Below are positions 11,767 to 44,874 of a stretch of DNA of 64,000 bases, piece after piece (the stretch's first letter is position 1; every line of letters begins with the position of its first letter). The translations under genes and the position numbers were made by a program. The stretch covers positions 1,345 to 65,344 of the forward strand of contig CAIMWE010000123.1 of NCBI GenBank assembly GCA_903845115.1. The letters run 5' to 3'. This DNA comes from an uncultured Acidobacteriota bacterium. Its GTDB lineage: Bacteria; Acidobacteriota; Thermoanaerobaculia; UBA5066. Below the pieces are notes generated by a model. The model had not been told where the DNA came from and searched no databases. It saw only the letters and a program-made list of their open reading frames with translations.

Positions 11767-13780
11767 GTGCGTCCTGAAGTGAAAGCGCGAGGATTGGGTG
11801 GAAAGGGGAATCGCGTTGGAGCGAGCTGTACGTCTACAGCGGGTGAAAGTCCCGTCCAGAAAGCGCCGGAGCATCTGGTAGTCGGCCCCAGGCAGCGGGA
11901 GAGATCCCGATGACCCGAGCGGGGCGCCGAAAGCCTCCGAACAGGAGGGAGCGACGACGCGGGCTGCAACATGAAGTGAAGCCTGCCGCCTCGACAGATT
12001 TACAGCGAGGGAGCCGAGCCGAGCATTTCACGGCGAAGGCCATGCGCAGGGCGCAGGGGACCGGAAGAGAAAGCGCCGTGGGTTCCTCCGGGGTATGGGG
12101 CGCGGCACGTGTCGAAGGAGACGTACGGAACAGGAGAGACCCGTCTGCGCGGCCCGAGTCAGGGCAAAGTGGGCCGTATAAGCCGAAGGTGAAGTCGGCC
12201 GCTGCGCAGCGGGAGTCCGAGGGGATCGAAGTACCGAAGAAGGCGGCGACGAATAACGCTGCCAGAGGGAAGGGTCCCTGCGGTGGTCAAGCCGGAAAAG
12301 CAGGTAAGCGCGAGGGCATGTCCGGGACAGCCCGGACCAACGACCCCGATGAGCACAAGCCGATCGAGAAAGTGCGACGACTGCGGATCCGGCTGTGGAG
12401 GGCTGCCAAGCGGCAGCCGGAGCGGCGATTCCATGCCCTATATGACCGTATCCACAGGAGTGACGTTCTGTGGGAGGCGTGGAGACGAGTACGGAGCAAG
12501 AAAGGATGTGCGGGCGTCGACGCCGAGACGCTCGTACAGATCGAGCAGCGCGGGGTCGAAGGCTTCCTCGAGGAGCTTCGGACCGAGCTGCGCGTAGGCG
12601 AGTACCTGCCGAAGGCGGTTCTGCGGCGGTACGTGGACAAGGCCGATGGAAGGAAGCGGCCGCTTGGGATACCTGCGGTGAGGGACAGGGTCGTCCAGAT
12701 GGCGGCGACGCTGATACTGGAGCCGATCTTCGAGGCGGACTTCGAGGACGACTCGTATGGATTTCGGCCGAAGCGCAGCGGGACGGATGCGCTGGAGGCT
12801 CTGCGCAAGCGAGCGTATGCGGGCGGGGGCAGCCACGTATTTGATGCCGACATCCGGGACTACTTCGGGAGTCTCGACCGGGAGCTACTCCTCTCGTTTG
12901 TGGGAGAGCGGATCTCGGACCGACGGGTACTCAAGCTGATCCGGCTCTGGCTGGAGGCCGGGGTGATGGAAGATGGAGAGGTGACCGAGCCGAAGCTCGG
13001 GACGCCGCAAGGGGGCGTCATCTCACCGCTCTTGTCGAACATCTATCTCGACCGGCTCGACACGGTATGGGAACGGCGGCACCGGGACCTGGGGCTGCTG
13101 GTTCGTTATGCTGACGACTTTGTCGTGATGTGTGACACGGCGGAGGAGTGCGCGCGAGCGGCGCGGGAGATCGGGACGATCCTCCGCGAGCTGAAGCTGG
13201 AGCTGCACCCGGAAAAGACGAGGCAGGTCGACCTGACCGATGGCAAGGGCGGGTTCGACTTCCTCGGCTGCCATCTGCGGAAGAAAGTGTCGGGCCGCTT
13301 GCTGGAGAAAGGGGTACGGAGGTACTACCTGAGCCGGTGGCCCTCGGCGCGGAGCATGAAGCGGGTGAGACAGCGCGTGAAGGACGAAACCGACAGCAGA
13401 AAGAACGGCGTGAAAGACGTGAGAAAGCCAATCGAACGTCTGAATCCGATCCTTCGTGGCTGGGGGGCGTACTTCCGTACCGGGAATGCTGCTCAGAAGC
13501 TCAACCAGCTCGACGGCTACGTCTGGAGACGACTCCACCGCTTCAAGGTGAGGCGGAAAGGGCGAAACCTCCGGGCGGGTGAGGCCAGGGCTTGGTCGAG
13601 GGACTTCTTCTCGGGCCATGGACTCCACCGTCTGCGCGGCACTGTCCGCTATCCGGAGACTGCGTAATGCGACCCTTCGAGAGACCACCGGTAAGCCGTG
13701 TGCGGGAAAACCGCAAGCACGGTTTGAAAGGGGGTCTTGTGACTTCAGGAGCGGCCTTGCCGCGAAAGAATTGAACAGGA
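11767..13780 (+). mobile_element. Bacterial group II intron, intergenic, about 2.0 kb; the 3' boundary is approximate
   Basis: A GUGCG consensus 5' end at about 11767. A domain V-like 34-nt hairpin AAGCCGUGUGCGGGAAAACCGCAAGCACGGUUUG at about 13693-13726, followed by about 50 nt of domain VI-like sequence. An RT/maturase ORF sits inside (domain IV). Confidence 0.75.
12318..13667 (+). CDS. Group II intron-encoded reverse transcriptase/maturase (no endonuclease domain)
   Basis: RT blocks: RPLGIPAVRDRVVQ, FGFRPKRS, LGTPQGGVISPLLSNIYL, the YADDFVV catalytic motif and maturase domain X (RGWGAYFRTG). It ends without an HNH/En domain. Start taken at MSGTARTND... Confidence 0.85.
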   Translation: MSGTARTNDPDEHKPIEKVRRLRIRLWRAAKRQPERRFHALYDRIHRSDVLWEAWRRVRSKKGCAGVDAETLVQIEQRGVEGFLEELRTELRVGEYLPKAVLRRYVDKADGRKRPLGIPAVRDRVVQMAATLILEPIFEADFEDDSYGFRPKRSGTDALEALRKRAYAGGGSHVFDADIRDYFGSLDRELLLSFVGERISDRRVLKLIRLWLEAGVMEDGEVTEPKLGTPQGGVISPLLSNIYLDRLDTVWERRHRDLGLLVRYADDFVVMCDTAEECARAAREIGTILRELKLELHPEKTRQVDLTDGKGGFDFLGCHLRKKVSGRLLEKGVRRYYLSRWPSARSMKRVRQRVKDETDSRKNGVKDVRKPIERLNPILRGWGAYFRTGNAAQKLNQLDGYVWRRLHRFKVRRKGRNLRAGEARAWSRDFFSGHGLHRLRGTVRYPETA

Positions 13781-13787
13781 TCTACCA

Positions 13788-14333
13788 ATGAACCCCGATG
13801 AGATGGCGGCCCGCCCGACTCTGGACTTCCCGCCGCTCTCCGTGCGATGGGAGGGGCTGGTCGTCGTCCTGGACGCGACGACGCTCAACACCGTCGTCCG
13901 GAAGGCGCTCGCGAAGGTGCCCGAGATCCGGAAATTCCTGATCGAGCCGGAGTACGGCCGCCTCGGCGTGACCATGACGGTGAAGAAGAGAGGCGTGCCG
14001 GTCCCGCTCCGGTCTCACTTCACGTCGATCCGGCTGAAGGACGGCTTCCTCGGCTTTCACGTCGACGACCTGGTCGCGTTCGGCTTCGTCCCGATCCCCA
14101 ACTGGCTCCTCCGGCGGATCGCGCTCCGGCTGCCGTACCGCTCGGTCTTCTTCTACCCGGACGTGCGGGTGGTCGTGATCGACCTCAACGCCTTCCTCCC
14201 CGAGGACCTGATCGTGAACGTCCGCGACGTCCTCTGCGAGAACGGCGAGATGCGGTTCGTCTTCGGCCCCAGCCAGTACCGTCTCGACACGCTGGTCGAC
14301 GGGATCGGCAAGGACCCGTTCGCGGAGGAGTGA
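13788..14333 (+). CDS. Hypothetical protein (181 aa), no recognisable motif
   Basis: Clean ORF immediately downstream of the intron 3' end, with codon usage matching its neighbours. Confidence 0.45.
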   Translation: MNPDEMAARPTLDFPPLSVRWEGLVVVLDATTLNTVVRKALAKVPEIRKFLIEPEYGRLGVTMTVKKRGVPVPLRSHFTSIRLKDGFLGFHVDDLVAFGFVPIPNWLLRRIALRLPYRSVFFYPDVRVVVIDLNAFLPEDLIVNVRDVLCENGEMRFVFGPSQYRLDTLVDGIGKDPFAEE

Positions 14334-14378: not shown

Positions 14379-15530
14379 CTACCGTCCCAGCCTTCGTGCC
14401 AGCACGCTGACCCCTCGCGCCACGACGTCGGGCGGGCAGGCGGTGTAGCAGATCCGGAAGTGCGTCGGGAACGGGCCGAAGCTCGGCCCGGGGGCCGCGA
14501 AGAGGCCGTCCTCGGCGCACCCTTCGAGGAAGGCCGCCAGGCCGCCCGGCCCTAGGCGCTCCGCGACGTCGAGGAAGAGGAAGGTGCTCCCCTGGGGGGG
14601 CGGGACGCCGAGCGCGTGCGCCGACGCCGTCCCGACCCGCCGGTACTCCTCGCGGGAGGCGCGCGCCCATTCGTCGCCCGCCCCTTCGAGGGCCCGGACG
14701 GCGGCCCACTGGGAGGCGGTGGGGGCGCTGTAGGTGGAGTGGGTGTGGAGCTTCAGCGCCTCCGCCATCGCAGCCCTCGGTCCGACGTCGAAGCCGACCC
14801 GCTGACCCGCCATTCCGTACGCCTTCGAGAAGGAGTGGAGCGAGAAGGAGCGCTCGGGAGCCAGCGGGAAGCCGTAGGTGTGGGTCCCTTCGAACTGCGT
14901 CTCCTCGTAGACCTCGTCGAAGAAGAGCCAGAGGTCTCTCCTCCGCGCCCAGGCGACGAGCGCCTCCAGCCAGGCCCGCGGCAGGACGCGCCCGGTCGGG
15001 TTGCTCGGCGTGTTGACGTAGAGGGCGGCGGTCTTCGCGGTCGCCTTCGCCTCGACGGCGGCGACCGCCTCCTCCGCCGACCCGGCCGAGAGGAGGACCG
15101 GGACGGGCACCGGCGTTGCCCCGAACATCCGCGTGATGCCGTCGATGAGCGGCCAGTGCGGCGCCAGGATCAGCACCTCGTCGCCCGGTCCGACGACCGC
15201 CCCGACCGCCGCCATGAGGCCGGCCGTGGCCCCGCCGCTGACGAGGACGTTCTCCCGCTCGACCGGGGCCCCGGTCCGCACCCGCATCCGCTCGACGACC
15301 AGGTCGACGAGGCGGGGGAGGCCCTGCGGTGGCGTGTACTGGTTCAGCCCCGCGTGGTCGGACGCGAGGATCCCGTCGGTGCCGCACCCCTCGGGCGGAC
15401 TCTTCCAGGTGTCTCCGACGTGGAAGGGGTAGACCTCCCCCTGGTGCGTCTTCAGCTTGTGAAGGAGCTTCGAGTAGACCGATCCCTTGATTCCGGCGAC
15501 CGAGTCCGAGACCTGCGGAGCTTTCGGCAT
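14379..15530 (-). CDS. PLP-dependent aminotransferase, class I/II (aspartate aminotransferase family)
   Basis: 383 aa with the SFSKAYGMAGQRVGF PLP-lysine motif and an N-terminal ...NQYTPPQGLP... region. Confidence 0.85.
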   Translation of the reverse strand: MPKAPQVSDSVAGIKGSVYSKLLHKLKTHQGEVYPFHVGDTWKSPPEGCGTDGILASDHAGLNQYTPPQGLPRLVDLVVERMRVRTGAPVERENVLVSGGATAGLMAAVGAVVGPGDEVLILAPHWPLIDGITRMFGATPVPVPVLLSAGSAEEAVAAVEAKATAKTAALYVNTPSNPTGRVLPRAWLEALVAWARRRDLWLFFDEVYEETQFEGTHTYGFPLAPERSFSLHSFSKAYGMAGQRVGFDVGPRAAMAEALKLHTHSTYSAPTASQWAAVRALEGAGDEWARASREEYRRVGTASAHALGVPPPQGSTFLFLDVAERLGPGGLAAFLEGCAEDGLFAAPGPSFGPFPTHFRICYTACPPDVVARGVSVLARRLGR

Positions 15531-15999
15531 CCTTCGATCCTATTCCGTTTGGGACACCGAGCAGGAGCACGGCCGAAAGGGACCGGCCCACAGAGTTCGC
15601 GTGCGGCGCTCGTCCTGGCGAACCGCCGCGAAGGTGCGTCGCGAAGATCCTGCGCGCGAGCCACCCGTTAGCGGCCCCGTGCTCGCGGAGTCGGGGCGCT
15701 CGCGAACTCGGCCTTCGGCCTCAAACAGCGCGAGCGCCTGACCCGACTTCACTCCGCGCGAGGCCGAACGGGTGCCCGGCACGTGCTCGAAGACCGTTCG
15801 CGACGCACCCTCGCGGCGCTACGCGCCGCACCAGAGAGGCTGCAGCGGATCAGGGGAGACCGGACGCCGCCGGCCTCCCCTGCGGCCCTTCGGGCCTACC
15901 CCTCCATTGTCGTGAGCGGGCAGCGCCAGGATCCCTGGGGTGTGGAAGCTCGGGGCGGTCTCCTTCTCTGGGGCGCGGAGAGGTAGGCCGTGAGGCCGC

Positions 16000-16152
16000 A
16001 GGGGCACCCGGCCCGGGTGCCCCTGATCAATATTGACCGCCCTCGGCGAGGCGCGAAGCGTCCTCGCCCTCGGCGAGGCGCGAAGCGTCCTCGCCCTCGG
16101 CGAGGCGCGAAGCGAGTCGCCCTCGGCGAGGCGCGAAGCGTCCTCGTCTCGC
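16000..16152. repeat. Structured repeat element, copy A: 10-bp-stem hairpin, then CTGATCAATATTG, then four 26-27-nt tandem units (GCCCTCGGCGAGGCGCGAAGCGTCCTC)
   Basis: Seen directly in the sequence. Second copy at 43510-43630 with the same architecture. Confidence 0.8.
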
Positions 16153-16153
16153 G

Positions 16154-16738
16154 TCAGTCGATCCACACCTCCACCTTCCCGTCGTGGCTCTGGATCTCCA
16201 GGAGGTTCCCTGCCTGCGAGTCGGTCAGCTCCCCGAGGAGGGCGTCGACGTCCAGCGGCCTGTCCCGGTCGGCGAGGCGGGAGAGGAAGACGGACGGGAT
16301 CGTGAGGGTCGCCGTGTCGTCGCTCCCTTCCTCGGAGCCGGGGCGGCCCACCGTGATCCGGACGGACGCCTTGTCCTTCACGAAGGTCCACCTGTCGTCG
16401 TCGAAGGTCCGGGTCACCTCGGTGCAGTCGGGCTTCTCGGACAGCTCCTTCCAGAGGCTCCGGACCTGCTCGGCCTCGATCGACTGGTCGAACCGGCTCT
16501 CCAGCTCCTGCCGGACGCGGGCGCCGGTGGCCTTGAGCCCGTGGCGGACGAGGCCGAAGGGGACCGAGAAGGAGATCTTGTCGGGGTGGACCGTCCCGTG
16601 CCCGACGTCGCTGATCTCCATCCGGAGGAAGCGGGGGGCGCTCTTGCCGTGGGCGTGGCCCGGCACCGTGAAGGCGTAGACCAGCAGGAAGACCAGGAAG
16701 CAGAAGACCGCATTGACGACCGACCGGAGCTCCTTCAT
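16154..16738 (-). CDS. Hypothetical exported/membrane-anchored protein (194 aa)
   Basis: Internal Met start MKELRSVVNAVFCFLVFLLVYAFTVPGHA (signal/TM), then a charged soluble domain. No recognised family. Confidence 0.45.
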   Translation of the reverse strand: MKELRSVVNAVFCFLVFLLVYAFTVPGHAHGKSAPRFLRMEISDVGHGTVHPDKISFSVPFGLVRHGLKATGARVRQELESRFDQSIEAEQVRSLWKELSEKPDCTEVTRTFDDDRWTFVKDKASVRITVGRPGSEEGSDDTATLTIPSVFLSRLADRDRPLDVDALLGELTDSQAGNLLEIQSHDGKVEVWID

Positions 16739-16850
16739 GGCTCCTCCTTGTCGGAAGAAACGGGACGGGGCGGAAAAGGTTCCGGCGGAATGGAGACCGG
16801 ACGGCCCGGGCGAGTGGACCCGGTCCCCGATCCGGGGGATCCTAGCGGCC

Positions 16851-17108
16851 ATGCTCTCTCTCCAGGAGCTAGGGATCGTCTTCCTCGGCGGCCTCCTCGG
16901 CTCGACGCACTGCATCGGGATGTGCGGTCCGTACGTCCTGATGTGCCTCGCCGCCCCCGGCTTGGGCGGAGCGCCCCGCCCCCTGGCCTTCGCCCTCTTC
17001 ACCGGAGCGCGCCTGTCGGTCTACGCAGGGCTGGGGGCCCTGGCCGGCCAGGCGGGAGGGTCGATCGCCGGGAGCGCCGGCACGGCGGCGGCCTGGGTTC
17101 CGTCGTAG
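16851..17108 (+). CDS. DsbD_2/CcdA-like thiol-disulfide transfer membrane protein (HCxGMCGP motif), apparently truncated or frameshifted
   Basis: MLSLQELGIVFLGGLLGSTHCIGMCGPYVLMCL...ALFTGARLSVYAGLGALAG matches the PF13386-type TM1 and HCxGMCGP signature. The ORF stops after about 85 aa, and TM-like sequence continues in other frames up to about 17331. Confidence 0.45.
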   Translation: MLSLQELGIVFLGGLLGSTHCIGMCGPYVLMCLAAPGLGGAPRPLAFALFTGARLSVYAGLGALAGQAGGSIAGSAGTAAAWVPS

Positions 17109-34913: not shown

Positions 34914-36134
34914 GTGCGCATCTTCCATCAGCCCAAGTTCGATTTCCTCGGCATCAAGTGGTACTGCATCACCGGCTCGATCGTCTTCACGGCGATCGGC
35001 CTCCTCTCCCTGGTCGTCAAGGGCGGGCCCAACTTCGGCGTCGACTTCACCGGGGGCGCCCAGCTGATCTACGGCTTCTCCAGCCAGCCCGACGAGAACC
35101 AGATCCGGAAGGTCGTCGAGTCGGCTCAGGTGAAGGTCGACTCGGTCCAGCGGTTCGACCGCGCCGAGAAGAACCAGGTCCTCCTCCGCGTCCCGATGGA
35201 GAAGAAAGAAGGGCGTGACCTCTCCAAGGAGGTGACGGCGGCCCTCACGAAGGCGTTCTTCCCCCAGGCCTCCGCGGGAGCGTTCGACCTGAACCTGAAC
35301 GGCGCCGACGCGCTCCTGGCGAAGCTGATCGTGGACGACCCGGAGAAGCTGGCCGCCAAGCCCAACGCGGACCCGAAGGCGGACTACGGCCGCATCGCCC
35401 AGTCGATCATCGACGCGCGGTCCCGCATGGGCCTGTTCAAGACCGTCGACGACGCCGCGAAGGTGCAGGGGATCGCCCCCGTGACCGGGGCGTGGCTGAA
35501 GGAGAAGGCCGTGGCCGGCCCCTTCACCCTCCTGTCGGCCGAGAACGTCGGGCCGCAGGTCGGGAAGGACCTCCGCGAGAAGGGGGCCCTGGCGGTCTTC
35601 GCCTCGTGGGCCGCGATGCTCGCCTACATCGGGCTCCGCTTCCGGTCGGTCTCGTTCGGTACGGCGGCGGTCGTGGCGCTGGTCCACGACACGCTCTTCA
35701 CGCTGGGGCTCTGCTCGATCCTGAACACGGAGATCTCGCTGACCGTCGTGGCCGCGTTCCTGACCTTGATCGGCTACTCGGTCAACGACACGGTCGTCGT
35801 CTACGACCGGATCCGGGAGAACCTGCAAAAGAGCCGCCGCGAGCCTCTGCCGTCGGTCGTGAACCGCTCCATCAACGAGACGCTCTCCCGGACGATCCTG
35901 ACGTCTGGCCTCACCTTCCTCGTCTGCATCGCGCTCTTCTTCCTCGGCGGGGAGGTGCTCCGCGGCTTCTCGTTCGTCATGATCGTCGGGATCATCGTCG
36001 GGACGTACTCGTCGGTCTTCATCGCGGCCCCGCTCGTCATCGTCTGGGAAGAGTGGAAGTCGAAGAAGGCCGGCCAGAACGCGGCCCCCGCCGCGGCCTC
36101 CAGCCCGAAGGGGAAGCCGGCCAAGGCGAAGTAG
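34914..36134 (+). CDS. secF: Protein translocase subunit SecF
   Basis: GVDFTGGAQL...SecF fold, then YSVNDTVVVYDRIREN and a C-terminal Lys/Ala-rich tail. Confidence 0.9.
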   Translation: MRIFHQPKFDFLGIKWYCITGSIVFTAIGLLSLVVKGGPNFGVDFTGGAQLIYGFSSQPDENQIRKVVESAQVKVDSVQRFDRAEKNQVLLRVPMEKKEGRDLSKEVTAALTKAFFPQASAGAFDLNLNGADALLAKLIVDDPEKLAAKPNADPKADYGRIAQSIIDARSRMGLFKTVDDAAKVQGIAPVTGAWLKEKAVAGPFTLLSAENVGPQVGKDLREKGALAVFASWAAMLAYIGLRFRSVSFGTAAVVALVHDTLFTLGLCSILNTEISLTVVAAFLTLIGYSVNDTVVVYDRIRENLQKSRREPLPSVVNRSINETLSRTILTSGLTFLVCIALFFLGGEVLRGFSFVMIVGIIVGTYSSVFIAAPLVIVWEEWKSKKAGQNAAPAAASSPKGKPAKAK

Positions 36135-36165
36135 GCCCGCCGAGGAAACGCCCCGGAGACCTTCT

Positions 36166-36190
36166 CAGGCCCGCCTTCCGGCGGGCCTGA
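36166..36190 (+). terminator. Putative secDF terminator hairpin (GGCCCGCC-TTCC-GGCGGGCC), no clear U-tract
   Basis: Perfect 8-bp GC stem about 30 nt after the secF stop. Confidence 0.4.
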
Positions 36191-36294
36191 CCGCGTTCTG
36201 GGGCCTCGGCGACCCGGCCCGGCGGCGGCGGCCGGCCGGGGTCCGGAGGACGGGCCGGGCTGCGACGCCTCCTCTCGTGTGGGATAGTTGACGC

Positions 36295-36936
36295 TTGGAC
36301 GCAGGAATCGCGATCGACGACGAGGACGTGAGGCGCACCCTGCGCGCGTGGATCGAGGCCAGCATCCCGCCCCTTCACGGCTGGGCCACCGTGGAGAAGG
36401 GGCTCGCGCTGGCGGAGCTCGTGTACGCGACGCGCGCCGAGTCCTCCGTCGAGATCGGGGTGTTCGGGGGCCGCGGGACGATCTCCATGGCGCTCGGCCA
36501 CCGGGCGGCCGGCCGGGGCGTGGTCACGGCCATCGACCCGTGGGAAGCCGGAGCGGCGCTCGAGGGGGAGAACTCTCCCGAGAACGACGAGTGGTGGCAG
36601 AAGATCGACTACGAGGAGATCTTCCAGCATTTCGTCGGCGCCCTCGAGGCGTGCGGCCTGTCCGGGCAGTGCCGGATCCTCCGGAAGCGCTCCCACGATG
36701 CCGTGACGCTCTTCGAGGACGAAAGCATTTCCGTGCTCCACCAGGACGGCAACCACTCGGAGAAGGTCTCTTGCGCCGAAGTGCAGTCGTGGGGCCCGAA
36801 GGTCGGCCCTGGCGGGTACTGGGTCGCCGACGACACCGACTGGCCGACCACCCGGCGCGCCCAGGAGATGCTCCTGGAAAGGGGATTCCGGGTGATCGAG
36901 GACCGCGGCGCCTGGCGCGTCTACCAGAAGCCGTGA
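36295..36936 (+). CDS. Class I SAM-dependent methyltransferase, Methyltransf_24 (TylF/CmcI-like) family
   Basis: VEIGVFGGRGTISMALG (SAM-binding glycine-rich loop) and VLHQDGNHSEKVSCAEV, which fits the hxDGDHsye pattern of this family. The start codon is uncertain (a TTG at 36295 or a GTG at 36328). Confidence 0.6.
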   Translation: MDAGIAIDDEDVRRTLRAWIEASIPPLHGWATVEKGLALAELVYATRAESSVEIGVFGGRGTISMALGHRAAGRGVVTAIDPWEAGAALEGENSPENDEWWQKIDYEEIFQHFVGALEACGLSGQCRILRKRSHDAVTLFEDESISVLHQDGNHSEKVSCAEVQSWGPKVGPGGYWVADDTDWPTTRRAQEMLLERGFRVIEDRGAWRVYQKP

Positions 36937-36938
36937 CG

Positions 36939-37997
36939 ATGGTCGGGGCGTTCGGGGCCTGGATCGGGGACCGCATCTCGCGCCTTCGGGCGGAGCGTCG
37001 GAAACGGGCGCCGCTCTCCTCGTGGGACACCGGCCTCAGCGTCGTCTACGTCACCCGTCGCGCCGAGCCGCGCTTCGACTGGTTCGCCGATAGCCTGGCT
37101 TCCCAGCTAGGCGGAGAGGAGAGCCTCGAGGTCGTCTTCGTGGACGGGTTTCACTCCGCCGGGAGGTCGGCGGCCCTCGCAGGGATCGTGCGTGGCCGCT
37201 TTCCCTACCGGCACGTCCCCCCCAAGCCCTCCCCGTTGAGCGGCCCCTACAGGCTGACGGCGCGGGAATATTTCGCGGCTGCGAGCGCGCGCAACACGGG
37301 GATCGTCTACGCCCGGCACCCGTACGTCGTCTTCGTCGACGACGTATCGGTCCTCCTCCCGGGCTGGTGGAAGGAGGTTCGCCGGGCTGCGAGGCTCCGG
37401 TACGTGGTTGCCGGCGCCTACCAGAAACACTTCGAGATGACCGTGGAGGACGGCCTCCTCGTCGCGAGCCGGTCGGAGCCAGCCGGGATCGACTCGCGCT
37501 GGGCCCTGGGCGATTCCGGGGGCCTGGTTCCCATCCCGGGCGGCCAGCTGTACGGCTCGAGCGTCGGGGTGCCGCGGGACGCCCTCCTCGCCGTCAACGG
37601 CTTCGACGAGCTCTGCGACTCGGCCGGGGGCGAGGACTACCAGCTCGGAGTGCGACTGGAGTGGGCCGGGGAAGCGATCTACTACAGCCGCGCGATGCTG
37701 ACGGTCGAGAGCGAGGAGCTTCACCGGCAGGGCGCCGCTCTCGGTGGCATCGATCGCACGCTGGACGAGGCCGCCTACATGAGCTTGCTCAGGACGTTCG
37801 GGGTGGGGCGCCGCACGACTGACGGCCCGCGCGAGATGGGCTTCATGGTCCTCGACATCCTCTACGGGACGCATTCGGTCCGGTCCCTGGGCAACTCCTA
37901 CTCCCTCGCGGAGCTCCGGGAGGAGGATCTTCCCGGTCTCGTCGAAAGGTTCCCCCGCCGCCACTGGTTCACGGGCGAGGCCCTCTCCGACCTATGA
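36939..37997 (+). CDS. Hypothetical protein, possibly a GT-A-like nucleotide-sugar transferase
   Basis: 352 aa. VVFVDGFHS and HPYVVFVDDVSVLLPGWW, two hydrophobic-D-D style segments, and FDELCDSAGGEDYQLGVRLEW. Weak assignment. Confidence 0.35.
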   Translation: MVGAFGAWIGDRISRLRAERRKRAPLSSWDTGLSVVYVTRRAEPRFDWFADSLASQLGGEESLEVVFVDGFHSAGRSAALAGIVRGRFPYRHVPPKPSPLSGPYRLTAREYFAAASARNTGIVYARHPYVVFVDDVSVLLPGWWKEVRRAARLRYVVAGAYQKHFEMTVEDGLLVASRSEPAGIDSRWALGDSGGLVPIPGGQLYGSSVGVPRDALLAVNGFDELCDSAGGEDYQLGVRLEWAGEAIYYSRAMLTVESEELHRQGAALGGIDRTLDEAAYMSLLRTFGVGRRTTDGPREMGFMVLDILYGTHSVRSLGNSYSLAELREEDLPGLVERFPRRHWFTGEALSDL

Positions 37998-38917
37998 GGC
38001 CGCAGGCCCTCCACCGGCGGATCGTCTCGCGAGGGGACCTGCCGGGAAGCGACGGCGGGATCTACAACCCCGCGGCGGTCCCGGCTGGCTCCGCGATCCT
38101 CCTGCTGTGTCGCCGGGAGATCGACTACCGATTCACCGCCCGGGTCCACCCGGAGGCGATCCTCGTCGATCCCGACTCCTTCGCCGTCCTGCGTCACTGG
38201 ACGCTCCAGAAACGGGGCTTCCCCCGGTCTTCCCGCGTGGAGGACTTCCGGCTCCTCGCGCACCGGGACGAGCTCCTCGTCGTCCACACCCTCGTCACGG
38301 AGGACCGGATCAAGCCCGTGATCTCCCGCGTCTCGGGCAGGCGGCTGGAGCTGTTCGACGAGCTCGAGCTCCCCGTGGCGATCGACCGCGTGGAGAAGAA
38401 CTGGGTCCTCTTCGAGCGGGGAGGGACGATCCACTGCCTCTACCGGCTCGACCCCCTCACGATCTTCGCCAGGAAGCGGCGCGGATCGTGGACTCTCGTC
38501 CGGCGGGAGCCGAGCGGCTGGTCGGGCGAGCTCGAAGGCGGGCTGAGCAACTCCACCAACCTCATCCCGTTCATGGACGGATTCCTGGGCTTCTGGCACA
38601 CGCGGCTCCACGGACGGTACGTCCAGGGCGCCTTCCTCCTCGACGCCGACCTGCGGCTCCGGTTTCGGACGGGCGTGCTGCTCGACGGCGCCGACGTCCG
38701 AGAGGGGTTCAAGCCGGGCGTTCTCTACGTCAGCGCCCTCGTCGAGCATCGGGGGACGATCCTCGCGTTCTACGGCGAGGGAGACGCCCACACGAGCGTC
38801 GCGATCTTCGACGCCCGGGAGCTCGAGGACGAGCTCCGGCGTTCCCCGTCGGCGGGCGAAGGCCCTGCGCCGGACGGCGGGTTCCGGTCCTGGTGCCCTG
38901 TCTGCGACCTGCGCTAG
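37994..38917 (+). CDS. Hypothetical protein of unknown family; paralogous to the C-terminal domain of the 41413..43533 protein
   Basis: Shared motif blocks with the GT2-TPR protein C-terminus: GIYNPAAV..ILLLCRRE vs LACNPSIL..YLVNCRAV, EKNWVLFE vs QKNWLPFVE, H.RLHGRYVQGAFLLD vs HGIRYYLHRFLLLD. Confidence 0.5.
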   Translation: MRPQALHRRIVSRGDLPGSDGGIYNPAAVPAGSAILLLCRREIDYRFTARVHPEAILVDPDSFAVLRHWTLQKRGFPRSSRVEDFRLLAHRDELLVVHTLVTEDRIKPVISRVSGRRLELFDELELPVAIDRVEKNWVLFERGGTIHCLYRLDPLTIFARKRRGSWTLVRREPSGWSGELEGGLSNSTNLIPFMDGFLGFWHTRLHGRYVQGAFLLDADLRLRFRTGVLLDGADVREGFKPGVLYVSALVEHRGTILAFYGEGDAHTSVAIFDARELEDELRRSPSAGEGPAPDGGFRSWCPVCDLR

Positions 38918-38956
38918 GCGGTCGGCCCGGACGGTCTCCGGCCGGAGCGACCGCGG

Positions 38957-39766
38957 CTACCTTCCGGCGTCGCCCCCCCGCCCGCCGGGCCTCCTCGGCA
39001 TTCCCGCGATCAGCGCGCGGGCGGCCCCGTCCGCCTCTCCCCGAGCCCCCTTGAGAGCCTCTGCCCGTATCGCGGCGAGACGGAGCGTCCGGGAAGCGAG
39101 GTCGAGGCGCTGCCGGCCCGCCAGGGCGAAGCTGAGGAGCTCGAGGAGGGCTTCCCCGGCCGACAGCTTCGTCGGATTCCACGCCGCCCCGGGACGGTGC
39201 CTGAGGACGGCGATCCTTCCCACCGGGAGGGGGCGCGCGGGCACTCGTGCCCCGAGGGACTCGTGGCCGACGCGCAGGAAGCCGTCCCTCCGGAGCACGA
39301 TGGGGCGGGCGTAGGGGTGGGCCCGGCCCTGTTCGTCGATCACGGCGAACTCGTCCGAGAGGTACTCGGCGCCGGCACGCAGCAGAGCCGCGACGAGCTC
39401 GCTCTTGCCGCTGCCCGACCGTCCGGGCAGGAGGATGGCCTGGCCGTTCCACGCGACCGCCCCCGCGTGCACGAAGACGAGCCCCTCGGCGCGGCATGCG
39501 AGGAACCGCTCCACGTCGTCGACGACGAGGTCCGCGGCGACGGCGGCGGTGGGCGCGTTCAGCACGAGGCGGGCGCCCCGGCGGACGGCCATTCCCGGAC
39601 GGGCGCCGTCATCGTCCCTCACGGCGTAGCGCCGGTCCGCCGGGGCCGCCGGAGACAGCGCCTCCACCGGCGGCAGCCGGGCGGAGAGGAGCGGCCAGAA
39701 CGAGGCGTCGGGCGCGTCGACCCTCAACGCGACACCGAAGAGCCGGAACGTGGTCCGCTCGGGCAA
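38957..39766 (-). CDS. HPr-kinase/phosphorylase C-terminal-domain-like P-loop kinase (lasso-peptide-kinase-like)
   Basis: GRSGSGKSE Walker A in the HprK-like context (AILLPGRSGSGKSELVAALLRAGAEYLSDEFAVID). No N-terminal HprK regulatory domain. 269 aa. Confidence 0.7.
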   Translation of the reverse strand: MPERTTFRLFGVALRVDAPDASFWPLLSARLPPVEALSPAAPADRRYAVRDDDGARPGMAVRRGARLVLNAPTAAVAADLVVDDVERFLACRAEGLVFVHAGAVAWNGQAILLPGRSGSGKSELVAALLRAGAEYLSDEFAVIDEQGRAHPYARPIVLRRDGFLRVGHESLGARVPARPLPVGRIAVLRHRPGAAWNPTKLSAGEALLELLSFALAGRQRLDLASRTLRLAAIRAEALKGARGEADGAARALIAGMPRRPGGRGGDAGR

Positions 39767-39773
39767 GGCCGCG

Positions 39774-40955
39774 TCAGGCCGCCCGCCAGCGAAGGCGGGA
39801 GCGGATCTTCTTCAGGAGCGCGAGGGGGAGCTCTCTCTCCTGGTGCAGGCCCCACATCTCCCGCAGGTACGTCGGGAACGCCCGGATCCGCTCTCCGAGG
39901 GGAAGGGCTTTCAGCTCCCCGGACGAGGCGCGCCAGTGGAGGAAGACCCCTCGGAGCAGCGACGGCCGCCGCATTCGCGAAGCGACCTCCAGGCGGCGGC
40001 GCCACCCGCGGGAATGCCGCCGGAGGTTCGCCAGGACCTCGGTCGGCACGGCGGCGCCGAACTCCGACCCCAGGAAATTCAGCGCAAGCAGGAGGGGGAG
40101 GCAGAGGTCCCGGGCGCGCGCCTCGGAGACGAGAACGTCCCAGTCGAGGGCCGCGGGCTCGCGCCGGAGGAGGAGGACGGCGTCGGCGACCCAGTGTACG
40201 GGGGGGACGGGGCTCCATCGAAGGCCGTGCACGCACACGGACAGGAGATGGTCGGCCGGCGACAGGGTCCAGGCCCTCACGTCGCCCGAGACGAAGGGGA
40301 CGCTCCGGGCGAGAAAGCCCGCGTCGGCCCCTCCGGCACACGACTCCATCAGTGCGTGCCGGTGAAGGTCGACCTCCATCGGCGCCGGACCCGCGAAAGC
40401 TTGGCCGTGAAGATGGAGCATCCGGGACGCGGGCTCTCGCGCCACCGCTCGCCACCCCTCGGCCTCGAGGCAGCCCACGGCGGCGCCGAATTCTCCCTCG
40501 GGGACGAGAAGGTCGACGTCCCCCATGGGCCGCAGCGCCCGGTGGGGATAGACGAGCGCGGCGAGGGCGAGGCCTTTGATCACGACCACCCGGCTGACGA
40601 CCCGCGACAGCGAACCGATCAGCGATGCGGCCGCATCGGCGATCCCCTCCTGCTGGACCCAGGCTTCCTCCACGGTCCCGGGCCTTCCCGTCGCGGTGCC
40701 CGCCGCCAGGATCCCCAGCCTCCTGAGGTTCCACTCTGCCAGCGGAAGGAGGCGGCGCGCCGGACCCGAGGGGGGGCTCCCCCCGGCCAGCAACCACCGG
40801 TCCCAGGCGTTGCCGGCTCCTTCGCCCTCGAACAGGCCGGCCCGCAGGAGGTCGAGATCCGAGCCGCCTGGCCGGGTTCCCCGCGGCTCCGATATACTGG
40901 CCACGTTCGAGCGAATGAGACCCGCTCCATCGTGCGGGAACACGGAGGACGGCAT
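39774..40955 (-). CDS. Nucleotidyltransferase-family protein of the PF14907 (RiPP/lasso-associated NTase) type
   Basis: 393 aa with the hG[GS]/DxD NTase core (PMGDVDLLVPEG). Size and layout fit PF14907. It sits 8 nt upstream of the HprK-like gene on the same strand. Assignment is by pattern memory. Confidence 0.6.
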   Translation of the reverse strand: MPSSVFPHDGAGLIRSNVASISEPRGTRPGGSDLDLLRAGLFEGEGAGNAWDRWLLAGGSPPSGPARRLLPLAEWNLRRLGILAAGTATGRPGTVEEAWVQQEGIADAAASLIGSLSRVVSRVVVIKGLALAALVYPHRALRPMGDVDLLVPEGEFGAAVGCLEAEGWRAVAREPASRMLHLHGQAFAGPAPMEVDLHRHALMESCAGGADAGFLARSVPFVSGDVRAWTLSPADHLLSVCVHGLRWSPVPPVHWVADAVLLLRREPAALDWDVLVSEARARDLCLPLLLALNFLGSEFGAAVPTEVLANLRRHSRGWRRRLEVASRMRRPSLLRGVFLHWRASSGELKALPLGERIRAFPTYLREMWGLHQERELPLALLKKIRSRLRWRAA

Positions 40956-41382
40956 GACCGTATCGTACCCGAGGGCCCGCCGCGTCGGTCTGAGGACCGA
41001 GACGCTCCTCGACGAGTTGCTCGTCTACGACCTCGCCAAGAAGAAGGCTCACTGCCTCAACGCGACGGCGGCGTGCGTCTACCAGCTCGCGGACGGAACG
41101 CGTTCGACGAAGGTCCTCGCCAAGGAGCTCTCGGAGCGCTTCGGAACCCCGGCTGGCGAGGACCTCGTCTGGTACTGCCTGGACGAGCTCGGGCGCCAGG
41201 GACTCCTGGAGTCGGGCCAGGCGGAGACGTCGAAGGTGGTGGTCCCGTCGCGCCGCCACCTGCTGACCCGCCTCGGAATCGCGGCCGCCGTTCTCCCGGT
41301 CGTCCTCTCCGTGGCGCTGCCTCGTCCGGCGTCGGCTCAGCTGCGGAGCCCCGGGCCGACGGGCACTCCCATCCCCGACTAG
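40936..41382 (+). CDS. PqqD-family protein (RiPP recognition element-like) with an unusual C-terminal extension
   Basis: TETLLDELLVYDLAKKKAHCLNATAACVYQLADGTRSTKVLAKELSERFGTPAGEDLVWYCLDELGRQGLLE matches the PqqD/RRE winged-helix pattern (LxxYD...hxLNxxAxxIWxL.DG..T...L). Track coordinates are used. The ATG I read lies about 18 nt later, where it shares a CATG with the divergent NTase start. Confidence 0.65.
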   Translation, partial: GNTEDGMTVSYPRARRVGLRTETLLDELLVYDLAKKKAHCLNATAACVYQLADGTRSTKVLAKELSERFGTPAGEDLVWYCLDELGRQGLLESGQAETSKVVVPSRRHLLTRLGIAAAVLPVVLSVALPRPASAQLRSPGPTGTPIPD

Positions 41383-41412
41383 GCGGCCACGCCTCTCCAC
41401 GGTCGCCATTTC

Positions 41413-43533
41413 ATGACCCGGGAATCGCGCGCCTCGAGGGAACCGTCCCCGCCGCCCAGGGTCTGCCTCTGCATGATCGTCCGGAACGAGAAGCGAGTCC
41501 TCCGGCGCTGCCTCGACGCGGCCGGGCCGATCGTCGACGCGGTCAGCCTCTGCGACACCGGGTCGGACGACGGGACGCCGGAGATCGCGACCGCGTGGCT
41601 CGCCGAACGGTCCGTTCCGGGGCGCGTTCACCGCCACGTCTTCCGCAACTTCGGCCGCAACCGGACCCTCGCGGCCGAAGCGGCCCGCCGGACGATGCTC
41701 GGCCTCGGCTGGGACCTCGAGACGAGCTACCTCCTCTTCCTGGACGCCGACATGGTCCTCGAGATCGCGCCGTCGTTCCGGGCGAAGTCGCTCGGGGCGG
41801 ACGTCTACCGCGTCTTCCAGCGGAACGGCCGGTATCTCTACCCGAACGTCCGCCTGGTCCGCGCGAGCCTTCTCGGGCGTTTCCTGGGGGCCACCCACGA
41901 GTTCTTCCAGCCTCCACCGGGGACGCGGCAGCGGACTCTCGAGACGCTCTCCATCGACGACCGGTCGGACGGGGGGTTTCGCGCCCAGAAGCTCGAGAGG
42001 GACCGCAGGCTCCTCCTGGCGGAACTCCGCGCGAGGCCGCGGGACACGCGGGCCATGTTCTATCTCGCGCAGACCTTTCGGGACCGGCTGGAATGGGACG
42101 ACGCCCTCCGCTGGTATCGAAAGCGCATCGGAGCCGCGGTAGGGGCCGAAGAGGTCTGGTACTCCCACTACGCGAGCGGTCTCATCCAGCTGCGAAGGGG
42201 AGACACCCGGGCCGCGGTCTCGAGCCTCCACCGGGCGATCCGTCTCGATCCCTCGCGAGCCGAGCCCTACTACTACCTGGCCGGCTACCTGGCCGCCCGC
42301 GGGCGCTTCCTCTTCGCGGCGCGACTCGCCCGGCGCGGGGCAGCGCTCCCGATGCCCCGGAACCGCTCTCTGTTCCTGGAACCTGACGTCTACCGGTGGG
42401 GGCTTCTCTCCGAGTTCGCCCGGCTGGCCTACTTCACGCGGCTCCGCGACGCGGGGCTCGAGGTAAACGAACGGCTGGTCCTGGGCGCCGGCACTCCCGC
42501 CGACGCGGTGGAGCGGGCGAAGGGAAACGCCGTCCTGTATGCGCGGCCCCTGCCCGACGCCACCTACCTCGAGCTCACGCCCAAGCTGCCCGCCGGCTAC
42601 CTCGCCTGCAACCCCAGCATCCTCAGGACGACGAGCGGGTACCTCGTGAACTGCCGCGCCGTCAGCTACCGGCTCGACGAGTCCCAGCGCTATCACTCCC
42701 GGAGGCCGGACGGTGCGCTCCGGACCCGCAACTTCCTCCTCCGGACGGACCGTTCGCTCCGTTCCCTCGAGCAGCAAGAGCTCCGCTGCCGCGAGCGGCC
42801 GTTGCGCCCCAGCCACGTTCGGGGGCTCGAGGACTGCCGGATCTTCCGGCTGGGCGGGTCCCTCGCCGCCACGTGCACGACGGCCGAGCTCCACCCGGCG
42901 GGCCCGGCGCGCATGTCGCTGGTCCGGTTCGACCGCGACCTCGGGCTCGTCCGGCACCTGCCCCTCACCGGCTACCGGGACGCCCTCCCCCAGAAGAACT
43001 GGCTTCCTTTCGTGGAACCGGCCACCGGCGACCTCCAGGCGGTTTACGGCCTTGCGCCGTTCGTCACGCTTCGGATCGACCCCGCGAGCGGCGTGTGCGA
43101 GCCCACGAGGGAACGAGCCGAGCCCAGGCCCTTCGGGGACTTTCGCGGTTCCGCCGGGCCCGTCGACCTGCCCCGGCCGCTCGGCGGCGGCCGACTGCTG
43201 CTCGTCCACGAGGTGGCGTTCCACGGCATCCGCTATTACCTGCACCGCTTCCTGCTGCTGGATCGGGGCTGGCGGGTCACTCGCGTGTCACGCCCGTTCT
43301 TCTTCCACCACCGGGGGATCGAGTTCGCGAGCGGCGCCTGCGTCGCCCACGGAGGGAGGGACCTCCTCGTGACGCTCGGCGTCGAGGACCGGGAGGCCTG
43401 GATCTGTCGCGTCTCCCTCCGCTCCGTCCTCGCCTCCCTGCGCCCGCTCCCCGACGCTGAAGAATTCCCAGGGAGCGGAGAGGTAGCGGCGGGCGGAGCC
43501 CGACGCGCAGGGGAACCGGAGGGGTTCCCCTGA
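41413..43533 (+). CDS. Multidomain protein: SunS-like GT2 glycosyltransferase, TPR-like helical region, and an about 330-aa unknown C-terminal domain
   Basis: N-terminus CLCMIVRNEKRVLRRCLDAAGPIVDAVSLCDTGSDDGT...FLDADM is the GT-A DxD, comparable to the glycocin glycosyltransferase SunS (GIIVYNE...CLNS..., FIDADN). TPR-like helices (AMFYLAQTFRDRLEWDDALRWYRKRI; EPYYYLAGYLAARG). The C-terminal domain is a paralog of 37994..38917. Confidence 0.65.
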   Translation: MTRESRASREPSPPPRVCLCMIVRNEKRVLRRCLDAAGPIVDAVSLCDTGSDDGTPEIATAWLAERSVPGRVHRHVFRNFGRNRTLAAEAARRTMLGLGWDLETSYLLFLDADMVLEIAPSFRAKSLGADVYRVFQRNGRYLYPNVRLVRASLLGRFLGATHEFFQPPPGTRQRTLETLSIDDRSDGGFRAQKLERDRRLLLAELRARPRDTRAMFYLAQTFRDRLEWDDALRWYRKRIGAAVGAEEVWYSHYASGLIQLRRGDTRAAVSSLHRAIRLDPSRAEPYYYLAGYLAARGRFLFAARLARRGAALPMPRNRSLFLEPDVYRWGLLSEFARLAYFTRLRDAGLEVNERLVLGAGTPADAVERAKGNAVLYARPLPDATYLELTPKLPAGYLACNPSILRTTSGYLVNCRAVSYRLDESQRYHSRRPDGALRTRNFLLRTDRSLRSLEQQELRCRERPLRPSHVRGLEDCRIFRLGGSLAATCTTAELHPAGPARMSLVRFDRDLGLVRHLPLTGYRDALPQKNWLPFVEPATGDLQAVYGLAPFVTLRIDPASGVCEPTRERAEPRPFGDFRGSAGPVDLPRPLGGGRLLLVHEVAFHGIRYYLHRFLLLDRGWRVTRVSRPFFFHHRGIEFASGACVAHGGRDLLVTLGVEDREAWICRVSLRSVLASLRPLPDAEEFPGSGEVAAGGARRAGEPEGFP

Positions 43534-43630
43534 TCAATATTGGCTGCCCTCGGTAGAGGCGCGAAGCGACTCGCCCTCGGCAGAGGCGCGAAGCGACTCG
43601 CCCTCGGCGAGGCGCGTAGCGTCTCGCTCC
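43510..43630. repeat. Structured repeat element, copy B (hairpin GGGGAACC-GGAG-GGTTCCCC, then CTGATCAATATTG, then three 26-27-nt tandem units)
   Basis: Same architecture as copy A, with compensatory base changes in the hairpin stem. It overlaps the 3' ends of both convergent genes. Confidence 0.8.
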
Positions 43631-44874
43631 GACCCGAAGACCCCTTCCCACTTCGCCACGACCACCGCCGCCACGCAGTTGCCGGCGAGGTTGATCGAGG
43701 TACGGGCCATGTCCATCAGCTCGTCGACGGCGAGGATCATCGCGACTCCCGCCTCGCCCGGCAGGTTGAACGCCGCGCAGCCGGACACGATGATGACGAG
43801 CGAGGCCCTGGGCACCGCGGCCACCCCCTTCGTCGTGAGCATGAAGGTGAGCATCATCAGGACCTGCTCGGTCCAGGTCATGTGCCGTCCGGCCGCCTGC
43901 GCGATCGTGAGCGAGGCGAGCGCGATGTAGAGCGTGGAGCCGTCCAGGTTGAAGCTGTAGCCGGCCGGGAGGACGAAGCCGGCCACGCTCTTCGGGACTC
44001 CGAACTCCACGATCCGCTCGAGGGCGCGCGGGAGGGCCGCCTCGGAGGACGCGGTCGAGAAGGCGATCATGAAGGGCTCCCGGATCGCCCGGAAGAACTT
44101 GAGGACCGGGACCTTCGCCAGCTTCAGGGCGGGGACCATCACGATCAGGACGAAGATGACCAGGGAGAGGTAGAGCGACCCGACGAGCTTCACGTAGCTC
44201 CGGAGGACCCCGAGGCCGTGGTGGGACACGGCGCCCGCCATCGCGCCGAAGACGCCGAGCGGGGTCAGCGCCATCACGTAGTCGGTCAGCTTGAACAGGA
44301 CCGCGACGGCCGACTCGAAGAAGGCGACGAACGGCTCGGACCGCTTCCCGACGTGGGCCGCAGCGATTCCGAGGAGGGTGGCGAAGATGACGATCTGGAG
44401 GATGTCCTGCCTCGCCATCGCGTCGATGACGTTCGAGGGGAAGAGGTGGAGGAGGGTCTCCACGAGCGTCTTCGGCTTCGCGAGGTTGGCCTCGCCGGTC
44501 ATCGGGAGCTTCAGGTCGAGGCCGGGCTTGACGACGTTGGCCATCACGAGGCCGATGACGAGGGCGATCGTGGTGGCGACCTCGAAGTAGACGAGGGCCT
44601 TCACGCCCATCCTTCCCACGGCCTTGATGTCGCCCGTCTTGCCGATGCCGAGGACGATGGTCGCGAAGATCAGCGGGACCACCAGCATCTTGATGAGGCT
44701 GATGAACGCCTTCGAGAGGAAACGGAACGTCTCGTAGGCCGCCGGGTACTGTTCCGCGGGGAGGCGGTCGCCGAGGACGACGCCGAGCACCAGCGCGTAC
44801 ATGATCAACGCCGTCCCCGACAGGAACGCGGAGCGGCCGCGCGGAGCGGCCGCGGGCGGGGCGCCGCCGGTCAT
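43534..44874 (-). CDS. Dicarboxylate/amino acid:cation symporter (DAACS family, GltP/DctA-like)
   Basis: Typical DAACS TM layout and motifs (e.g. AAFNLPGEAGVAMILAVDELMDMARTSINL). Start set at MTGG..., overlapping the dedA stop (ATGA). The last about 30 aa (AEGESLRAS repeats) come from the tandem repeat element. Confidence 0.8.
   Translation of the reverse strand: MTGGAPPAAAPRGRSAFLSGTALIMYALVLGVVLGDRLPAEQYPAAYETFRFLSKAFISLIKMLVVPLIFATIVLGIGKTGDIKAVGRMGVKALVYFEVATTIALVIGLVMANVVKPGLDLKLPMTGEANLAKPKTLVETLLHLFPSNVIDAMARQDILQIVIFATLLGIAAAHVGKRSEPFVAFFESAVAVLFKLTDYVMALTPLGVFGAMAGAVSHHGLGVLRSYVKLVGSLYLSLVIFVLIVMVPALKLAKVPVLKFFRAIREPFMIAFSTASSEAALPRALERIVEFGVPKSVAGFVLPAGYSFNLDGSTLYIALASLTIAQAAGRHMTWTEQVLMMLTFMLTTKGVAAVPRASLVIIVSGCAAFNLPGEAGVAMILAVDELMDMARTSINLAGNCVAAVVVAKWEGVFGSERDATRLAEGESLRASAEGESLRASTEGSQY

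Follow-up and report, generated by a model that had tools for sequence, protein, structure and literature searches.

What kind of element stands twice in the 64-kb stretch of DNA analysed here (the window), each time as a GC hairpin followed by a 13-mer and a set of tandem units? A preliminary description of these two places, called loci A and B below, had proposed a REP/MITE-like element or a structured terminator module, and not a CRISPR, at the 3' ends of minus-strand genes. The shared architecture was confirmed in the sequence: at both loci CTGATCAATATTG stands between a GC hairpin and tandem units of 27 nt, and the stem differences between GGGGCACCCGG..CCGGGTGCCCC and GGGGAACC..GGTTCCCC are compensatory, both hairpins being present. 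The 13-mer occurs exactly twice in the window, as exact matches on the plus strand at 16023-16035 (A) and 43530-43542 (B), against a chance expectation of about 0.09. The three to four tandem units of about 27 nt were recovered by Tandem Repeats Finder as 4.1 copies at A (16038-16146, score 197) and 3.1 copies at B (43546-43627, score 136), which are the best arrays of the window, all others scoring 61 or less. Array A, on the plus strand and non-coding, has four units of 27, 27, 26 and 27 nt (GCCCTCGGCGAGGCGCGAAGCGTCCTC), each with GCGAAGC; array B, on the minus strand, has three 27-nt units read in frame as the C-terminal tail of a symporter. Note that the start-to-start spacing in array A (27, 27 and 26 nt) equals the unit length, so the units are contiguous, there are no spacers, and a CRISPR was rightly dismissed. 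The position at minus-strand gene ends holds as well: array A lies 7 nt past the stop of ORF 16154-17002, and array B lies within the ORF of the SDF symporter.

Is this the whole element? Both loci are real, but only a part of them had been described: the similarity begins upstream of 16000 and 43510, with GCGGAGAGGTAG and a second small hairpin. When the two loci are aligned, both show GCGGAGAGGTAG, a small variable hairpin and then GCAGGGG..CCCCTGATC. The order of hairpin, invariant 13-mer and tandem units is thus not the architecture of the family, in which a two-hairpin module bearing GGAGGGGTAG and GCAGGGG is what is conserved. Its core measures 52-59 nt and is made of GGAG(A/G)GGTAG, hairpin 1, GCAGGGG, hairpin 2 and CCCCTGATC; in terms of layout, an unpaired GGAG(A/G)GGTAG leads to a small hairpin, GCAG, a longer hairpin closed by GGGG/CCCC, and TGATC. 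One subfamily adds a third small hairpin unit, GCCCTCGG(C)GAGGCGCGAAGCG, 3' of the module. The search pattern GGAGRGGTAG-N8-30-GCAGGGG-N8-30-CCCCTGATC matches the window three times (A, B and C) and its shuffles not at all. Core module A, at 15977-16028 on the plus strand, consists of GGAGAGGTAG (15977-15986), hairpin 1 (15986-15997, with a GTGA loop), GCA, hairpin 2 (15999-16025) and CTGATC, and it matches the covariance model introduced below with 71.8 bits (E 2.2e-13). Core module B, at 43477-43535 on the plus strand, has GGAGAGGTAG, hairpin 1 as CGGGC-GGA-GCCCG, GCAGGGG, hairpin 2 as AACC..GGTT, and CCCCTGATC (56.1 bits, E 5.9e-10). The third match, module C at 15848-15905 on the minus strand, was absent from the preliminary description; it is inverted relative to A, reads GGAGGGGTAG, hairpin 1 (GCCC-GAA-GGGC), GCAGGGG, hairpin 2 and CCCCTGATC, scores 79.9 bits (E 3.7e-15), and is conserved in the related contigs L008 and L023. 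Downstream of it a third small palindrome, GCGGCGC-GTA-GCGCCGC, can be read from the sequence at 15813-15829 (minus strand), and this is the counterpart of the GCGNAGC hairpin of the 27-nt unit. The GGAG ends of C and A are separated by a spacer of 71 nt (15906-15976), whose right-hand 40 nt or so (about 15937-15976) form a leader that also precedes a module in contig L038 of the same genome, with GAAGCTC(G/T)GGGCGGTCTC..GGGGCGC before GGAGAGGTAG in both cases.

Some neighbouring features may be recorded here. An aminotransferase gene (Pfam Aminotran_1_2) lies at 14379-15530 on the minus strand, and between its start and module C there is a leader of about 310 nt (15530-15847). This leader holds a 28-nt inverted repeat (15618-15645 and 15797-15824, 89% complementary), matches nothing in Rfam, and shows partial conservation in L008 and L023. 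Farther away, a group II intron occupies 11837-13799 on the plus strand, with Rfam RF02003 domains 1-4 at 11837-11974 and RF00029 at 13691-13799, and the corresponding stretch of related contigs is annotated with a reverse-transcriptase/maturase ORF (RVT_1, GIIM). A link between the intron (11.8-13.8 kb) and the module was considered and rejected, as neither module nor hairpin is found at the intron borders. Likewise, a small ORF with GGAGAGG as ribosome-binding site was rejected, there being no start codon near copy B.

Are there further copies, or is the likeness of A and B a local matter? The preliminary description had proposed a search for relatives and the building of a covariance model, and had allowed that two copies without relatives would mean a local duplication. 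A scan of the metagenome collection with the search pattern gave 30 loci, where the number estimated by chance is below one (our own calculation, not the output of a tool). Flanks are unrelated among the 30 loci, and the hairpins vary in sequence and length with the unpaired motifs constant; an identical 58-nt module adjoins at least three different genes (L009, L011/L032 and L035). The scan shows that the predicted two-hairpin module is multi-copy and dispersed over unrelated loci, as the term REP/MITE-like had anticipated. What, then, of a duplication within the window, or of a likeness due to chance, without any family? The 13-mer plus array does occur only twice there, and no true match to that exact combination was seen in reference genomes, where the pattern CTGATCAATATTG-N2-6-CCCTCGG, which was too narrow, returned two chance matches, both inside unrelated coding sequence. 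The 30 loci, together with copies just outside the window, all with differing flanks, rule this explanation out for practical purposes, and its probability is close to nil. In the population genome of the window, some 80 kb (window, L038 and L041) hold 7 modules, which stand at 4 intergenic sites, the two contigs being assigned to it by encoded proteins identical to those of the window. No module was found in viral contigs, and in the literature searched the motif strings turned up only in unrelated primers.

The variation among copies also preserves structure. Both hairpins form on folding in 22 of 23 unique modules, with stems of 4-8 bp for hairpin 1 and 8-11 bp for hairpin 2. In an alignment of 26 unique modules, 96.8% of pairing cells can pair as compared with 85% in shuffles, and cells in which both partners changed number 36 as compared with 13; when the alignment is slid as a control, pairing falls to 27-64%. 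A calibrated covariance model (R1) built from this alignment found further, more divergent copies. For the resulting 35 copies the figures are 97.5% vs 86% in shuffles for pairing cells and 44 vs 13 for double changes, and none of 500 shuffles reaches the observed value. The outer GGGG/CCCC pairs are fixed by the search pattern and hence uninformative on covariation; the signal comes in hairpin 1 from the two variable pairs and in hairpin 2 from the inner ones. These comparisons show that both predicted stems are maintained by compensatory changes, the unpaired motifs staying constant. By hand count over the 35 aligned copies, 32 have GTAG directly 5' of hairpin 1 and 31 have GCAG 5' of hairpin 2; both motifs are part of the search pattern, so that 26 copies match by construction, and the 9 extra matches of the model mostly keep both. 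GCAG often precedes a third hairpin as well. As a side observation, contig L024 carries at 1-130 three tandem 42-nt short units (GTGATTCGCGCGGAGGGGTAGGACCGAAGGTCCCCACACGTC) with the GGAGGGGTAG leader and hairpin 1 and without hairpin 2, followed by full modules, and the left-hand motif GTGAYYCGCGC is common to many loci of its sub-family.

How do the 13-mer and the array relate to this module? The 13-mer had been called invariant, which holds between A and B but not across the family. Its CTGATC is the 3' end of the core family-wide, and the next bases are usually CACTTCAG, CACTGCAG, AACGGCAG or similar; the AATATTG variant was met only in contigs of the window lineage (L002, L003, L015, L022 and L033), and a form related to CTGATCAATATTG, CTGATAAATGATGG, occurs in L038 of the same genome. 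A single unit GCCCTCGG(C)GAGGCGCGAAGCG follows CTGATC by 7-9 nt at the independent loci L006, L016, L017 and L028, and tandem units are found only at loci A and B of the window lineage. The array can thus be regarded as an amplification of the third small hairpin of the element. It varies among strains: array A has 4 units in the window vs 3 in L015 and L033, and in array B near-identical strains carry 2, 3, 4 or 5 units, so that the symporter measures 437, 446, 455 or 464 aa. Taken together, the distribution shows the 13-mer and the arrays to be lineage-specific derivatives, in which the predicted third unit was amplified to a 27-nt VNTR at two loci. The short-read (Logan) contig L001 (1-40) stops within array B, which indicates that the VNTR fragments assemblies, and gene callers extend both neighbouring ORFs into the repeat.

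Is there any rule in the placement of modules? They occur singly, as same-orientation tandems (4-5 copies in L024, 3 each in L021 and L020, and also L009, L019, L035 and L038) and as inverted pairs (A/C, L008, L023, L025 and L041). Genes were placed with a simple GC3-based call, and 29 sites could be evaluated in a hand count. In 26 of them a converging gene ends no more than 120 nt from the CTGATC side, which faces its stop, and in 10 the distance is about 12 nt or less; a stop equally close on the GGAG side was met only once. The exact spacing TGA-AGTG-GATCAGGGG, in the sense of the gene, recurs at about 8 loci. The count shows that the TGATC side is oriented toward the stop of a predicted converging gene, often no more than 12 nt away, and that the module sometimes supplies the stop itself. 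Two sites just outside the window may serve for description. In L041 (13689-13900) an inverted pair of modules lies between convergent genes; the TAG stop of the minus-strand gene is inside the third hairpin of the right-hand module, and the unit of the left-hand module begins 1 nt past the TGA of the plus-strand gene. In L038 (6244-6480) a tandem pair precedes a TonB-like gene, and its second member has the 40-nt leader of window copy A.

Does such a module act as RNA or as DNA? A cis-acting structured RNA in 3' untranslated regions, either a U-tract-independent terminator or a stabiliser of mRNA 3' ends, selected as RNA and spreading as a by-product, would explain that the CTGATC side is 0-120 nt from the stop of a co-transcribed upstream gene at most sites, and would account for the covariation and the great stability of the two hairpins. 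Part of the action ascribed to REPs is of this 3'-end RNA kind too (PMC3733652), and the near-fixed orientation to the upstream gene could indicate a role at the RNA level instead. The details of the hairpins, however, favour the opposite strand. Hairpin 1 has a C-GNA-G loop in 20 of 34 copies (GAA in 10, GCA in 5, GGA in 4 and GTA in 1) vs the complementary TTC in 2, and G-T pairs on the GTAG strand number 6 vs one A-C. As DNA, the mini-hairpin motif GCGNAGC is extraordinarily stable, and GNA triloops need C:G as their closing pair (PMC13037366, PMC3201870); the GCGAAGC of the 27-nt unit is likewise of the GCGNAGC form. The GTAG strand is antisense to the adjoining upstream gene, so the mRNA carries the complement, which would be the less favourable one for both the loops and the wobble pairs. 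The terminator proposed in the preliminary description also fails on its T-run, which is missing: there is no T/U run on either strand of the module, and a terminator scan of both strands at A and B gave no terminator-like site. Both orientations are found within one intergenic region (A and C, L041, L008 and L025), and up to 4-5 tandem copies at a site. Rfam returned nothing at the gathering score at A and B, and at E up to 10 only spurious microRNA-hairpin matches and no family. We therefore consider the RNA explanation unlikely. The strand-biased GNA triloops and the unpaired GTAG point to recognition as single-stranded DNA, that is, to a putative strand-specific role at the DNA level. It may be added that a GC hairpin unrelated to the module, CAGGCCCGCC-TTCC-GGCGGGCCTG at 36168-36191, also lacks a T-run and lies 3' of the SecF stop; T-less hairpins 3' of genes may be common in this genome.

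There is a further question of concern at locus B, where the repeat is translated. A plus-strand glycosyltransferase-like ORF (about 41473-43533) reads through core module B, and the SDF (dicarboxylate/amino acid:cation) symporter gene (Pfam SDF) lies at 43534-44874 on the minus strand. The palindrome TGATCA gives both stops, TGA at 43531-43533 (plus) and TGA at 43534-43536 (minus), so the convergent genes abut exactly; the same abutting gene calls recur in L002 and L003. The native tail of the symporter (about 20 residues) is replaced by element-encoded sequence, which ends ..RLAEG ESLRASAEG ESLRASTEG SQY* in the window (matching P0018) and has the general form ..RLAEG(ESLRASxEG)nSQY*. Could the 27-nt repeat then be a genuine coding repeat, a 9-residue C-terminal repeat domain, and the likeness of A and B a duplicated gene end? 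The unit is 9 codons long, it is in frame with the symporter, its changes in copy number preserve the frame, and locus A also reads (EDASRLAEG)nGQY* in one frame, the same one. Array A, however, lies 7 nt beyond the stop of its gene and its frame is broken by the 26-nt unit; compensating indels between the A and B units make the peptides differ (EDASRLAEG vs ESLRASAEG) with the DNA remaining similar. Single units elsewhere follow modules in non-coding positions, and the repeat tail is present in none of 33 symporter homologues inspected, the closest of which (83-89% identity, those named being from Thermoanaerobaculia bacterium) have short and unrelated ends. The position past the stop, the broken frame and the conservation of DNA over peptide argue for a DNA repeat that is translated at B by happenstance, and make a true coding repeat very improbable. 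A protein search with a chimera of all translated element frames gave only the symporter itself (E 6e-4); with 5.8 billion sequences in the database, a short match of low complexity has no way to become significant.

How did the element come to this junction? In the window, SecF (stop at 36132-36134) and the symporter are set apart by a 7.4-kb block (about 36135-43533) that holds genes for methyltransferases and glycosyltransferases as well as unknown ones, and element B lies exactly at the junction of this block with the symporter. In the sister contig L045 (5200-5400), the stops of the converging symporter and SecF genes are 13 nt apart, and there is no module. A clean pair of filled and empty sites was not recovered among the contigs compared, for L036 and L045 are without element B but differ in the neighbouring genes too.

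By what means would the modules spread? Among REPs of the GTAG superfamily, a RAYT gene (Y1/HUH, PF01797) flanked by the repeats makes up a REPtron, and its product binds single-stranded REP and cuts it at a CT dinucleotide. From the GTAG tag, together with the C:G-closed GNA triloops (the GCGNAGC motif) and their bias to one strand, we suggest for the present family a scenario in which the copies spread as single-stranded DNA hairpins, the tag being recognised by a putative trans-acting Y1/HUH transposase of the RAYT type. In about 0.39 Mb of related sequence, a sample too small to exclude a single-copy gene, no RAYT/Y1 gene was found by tblastn with E. coli RayT or by a scan for the HUH..Y..NP motif, which recovered the E. 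coli control alone; mobilisation of this kind is thus something that we purely infer. Lying in a 3' untranslated region, the stable hairpins would, like those of REPs, hold up 3' exonucleases and read-through. The array would expand and contract by replication slippage or unequal recombination between units, and at locus B such changes would alter the length of the C-terminal tail of the transporter, probably without consequence. A bolder idea, for which we see a slight chance, is that the module goes beyond a passive REP and is the working part of a system close to stop codons. It would then be either a 3'-end element that couples translation termination to the fate of the mRNA, or the DNA on which a domesticated HUH enzyme, so far undescribed, acts in targeting gene ends; either way the expandable 27-nt tail would serve as a contingency locus, and the C-termini of membrane proteins would be tuned by it from strain to strain.

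Another possible origin is a PATE-like miniature derivative of IS200/IS605, in which hairpins 1 and 2 with the guides GTAG and GCAG would be fused left and right ends, inserting by a short target near stop codons. Such a derivative would fit the two different hairpins in fixed order with a tetranucleotide before each, as well as the constant offset to the stop at about 8 loci given above, and in IS200/IS605 the tetranucleotides 5' of the end hairpins do serve as guide sequences (PMC8266576). Against this, no TnpA- or TnpB-like gene was seen near any copy, no full-length parent element was found, and the flanks hold no single conserved target beyond GGAG and CTGATC; tandem arrays and the mosaic exchange of hairpin types suit REP/BIME clusters better. 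An IS200/IS605 origin is accordingly improbable in our view, and the more natural assignment remains that of a REP-like repeat.

We think it probable that the loci are members of a new GTAG-tagged REP/BIME-like family, that is, of dispersed small non-coding hairpin repeats with the RAYT-type spread suggested above, in an uncultured high-GC host that is probably a member of Thermoanaerobaculia. If this is true, GTAG-tagged REP-type repeats reach an uncultured lineage of acidobacteria (Thermoanaerobaculia) living in anoxic lake water, and do so with a family that has an unusual fixed two-hairpin unit. The covariance model R1 can help to track down the enzyme that would mobilise the module. In lake metagenomes the 27-nt arrays offer natural markers of strains; at the same time they break short-read assemblies and draw gene-called ORFs into repeat DNA, as both convergent genes of locus B end in the element. 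Current views of bacterial repeats are not overturned by this; the find resembles the well-known REP elements and is in that respect fairly ordinary.

How close, then, is the resemblance? In described GTAG REPs the 5' tag is GTAG, or GYAG when degenerate, the stems are 5-13 bp long and the loops short; the REPs are arranged as head-head, tail-tail and head-tail dimers or as tandem clusters that include flanking DNA, their sub-families are distinguished by complementary stem changes, and they lie less than 20 bp from ORF 3' ends, between convergent or co-directional genes, where they can supply stops and can be intragenic (PMC3733652; PMC8266576). The module is like the GTAG REPs and BIMEs of E. 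coli, Pseudomonas and Stenotrophomonas (SMAG), and like the 24 GTAG families of Di Nocera et al. 2013 (PMC3733652), in having an unpaired tag directly 5' of a GC-rich, short-looped palindrome, GTAG for hairpin 1 and GCAG, a GYAG form, for hairpin 2. It is also like them in its complementary stem changes, in its single, inverted-dimer and tandem-cluster copies, and in its location just downstream of ORFs near their 3' ends, for the most part between convergent or co-directional genes, at times overlapping ORFs and giving stop codons. The regularly alternating orientation and conserved linkers of BIMEs are not seen, the clusters being mostly same-orientation tandems and the inverted pairs a minority. 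The module differs from GTAG REPs in being an obligate head-to-tail pair of two different hairpins, whereas head-tail dimers are rare in the described families (PMC3733652). It differs also in its conserved GGAGGGG leader and TGATC trailer, and in the literature we found no described REP counterpart of such a purine-rich leader of the GGAGGGG type. Further differences are the nearly fixed orientation to the adjoining gene, the VNTR formed by one sub-motif, and the absence of a RAYT gene beside the module in the 0.39 Mb or so searched. For Acidobacteriota, the 2013 survey reported only TIR-associated tyrosine transposases (PMC3733652).

With IS200/IS605 ends and PATEs the modules share DNA hairpins that are preceded by tetranucleotide guides and would act on one strand (the hairpins are subterminal in IS200/IS605); unlike in IS200/IS605, no transposase, parent element or defined target is seen with them. 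REPINs were reportedly introduced by Bertels and Rainey in 2011 as inverted REP doublets in Pseudomonas fluorescens. The A/C pair with its 71-nt spacer and the L041, L008 and L025 pairs are inverted doublets of this sort, which could fold as one long hairpin, but most module sites are singletons or same-orientation tandems and the doublet does not predominate. BOX elements of Streptococcus pneumoniae have the structure boxA-boxB(n)-boxC, with an internal module variable in number and, to our knowledge, without a GTAG tag. The present family is likewise modular and intergenic with one part in variable tandem number, but sequence and host are unrelated to BOX, and the variable part is terminal here and internal there. 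The MIRU units of Mycobacterium tuberculosis measure 40-100 bp and are not known to be joined to any such hairpin module. Like MIRU-VNTR, the 27-nt arrays are tandem repeats at gene ends of a high-GC genome, with strain-variable number and a possible in-frame reading with neighbours; unlike MIRU, their units are tied to a hairpin module. Compared with all these systems, the family is unusual in its traits: a predicted hairpin pair fixed head to tail, a GGAGGGG leader, a near-fixed orientation to the stop codon, and a terminal sub-motif that has turned into a coding VNTR.
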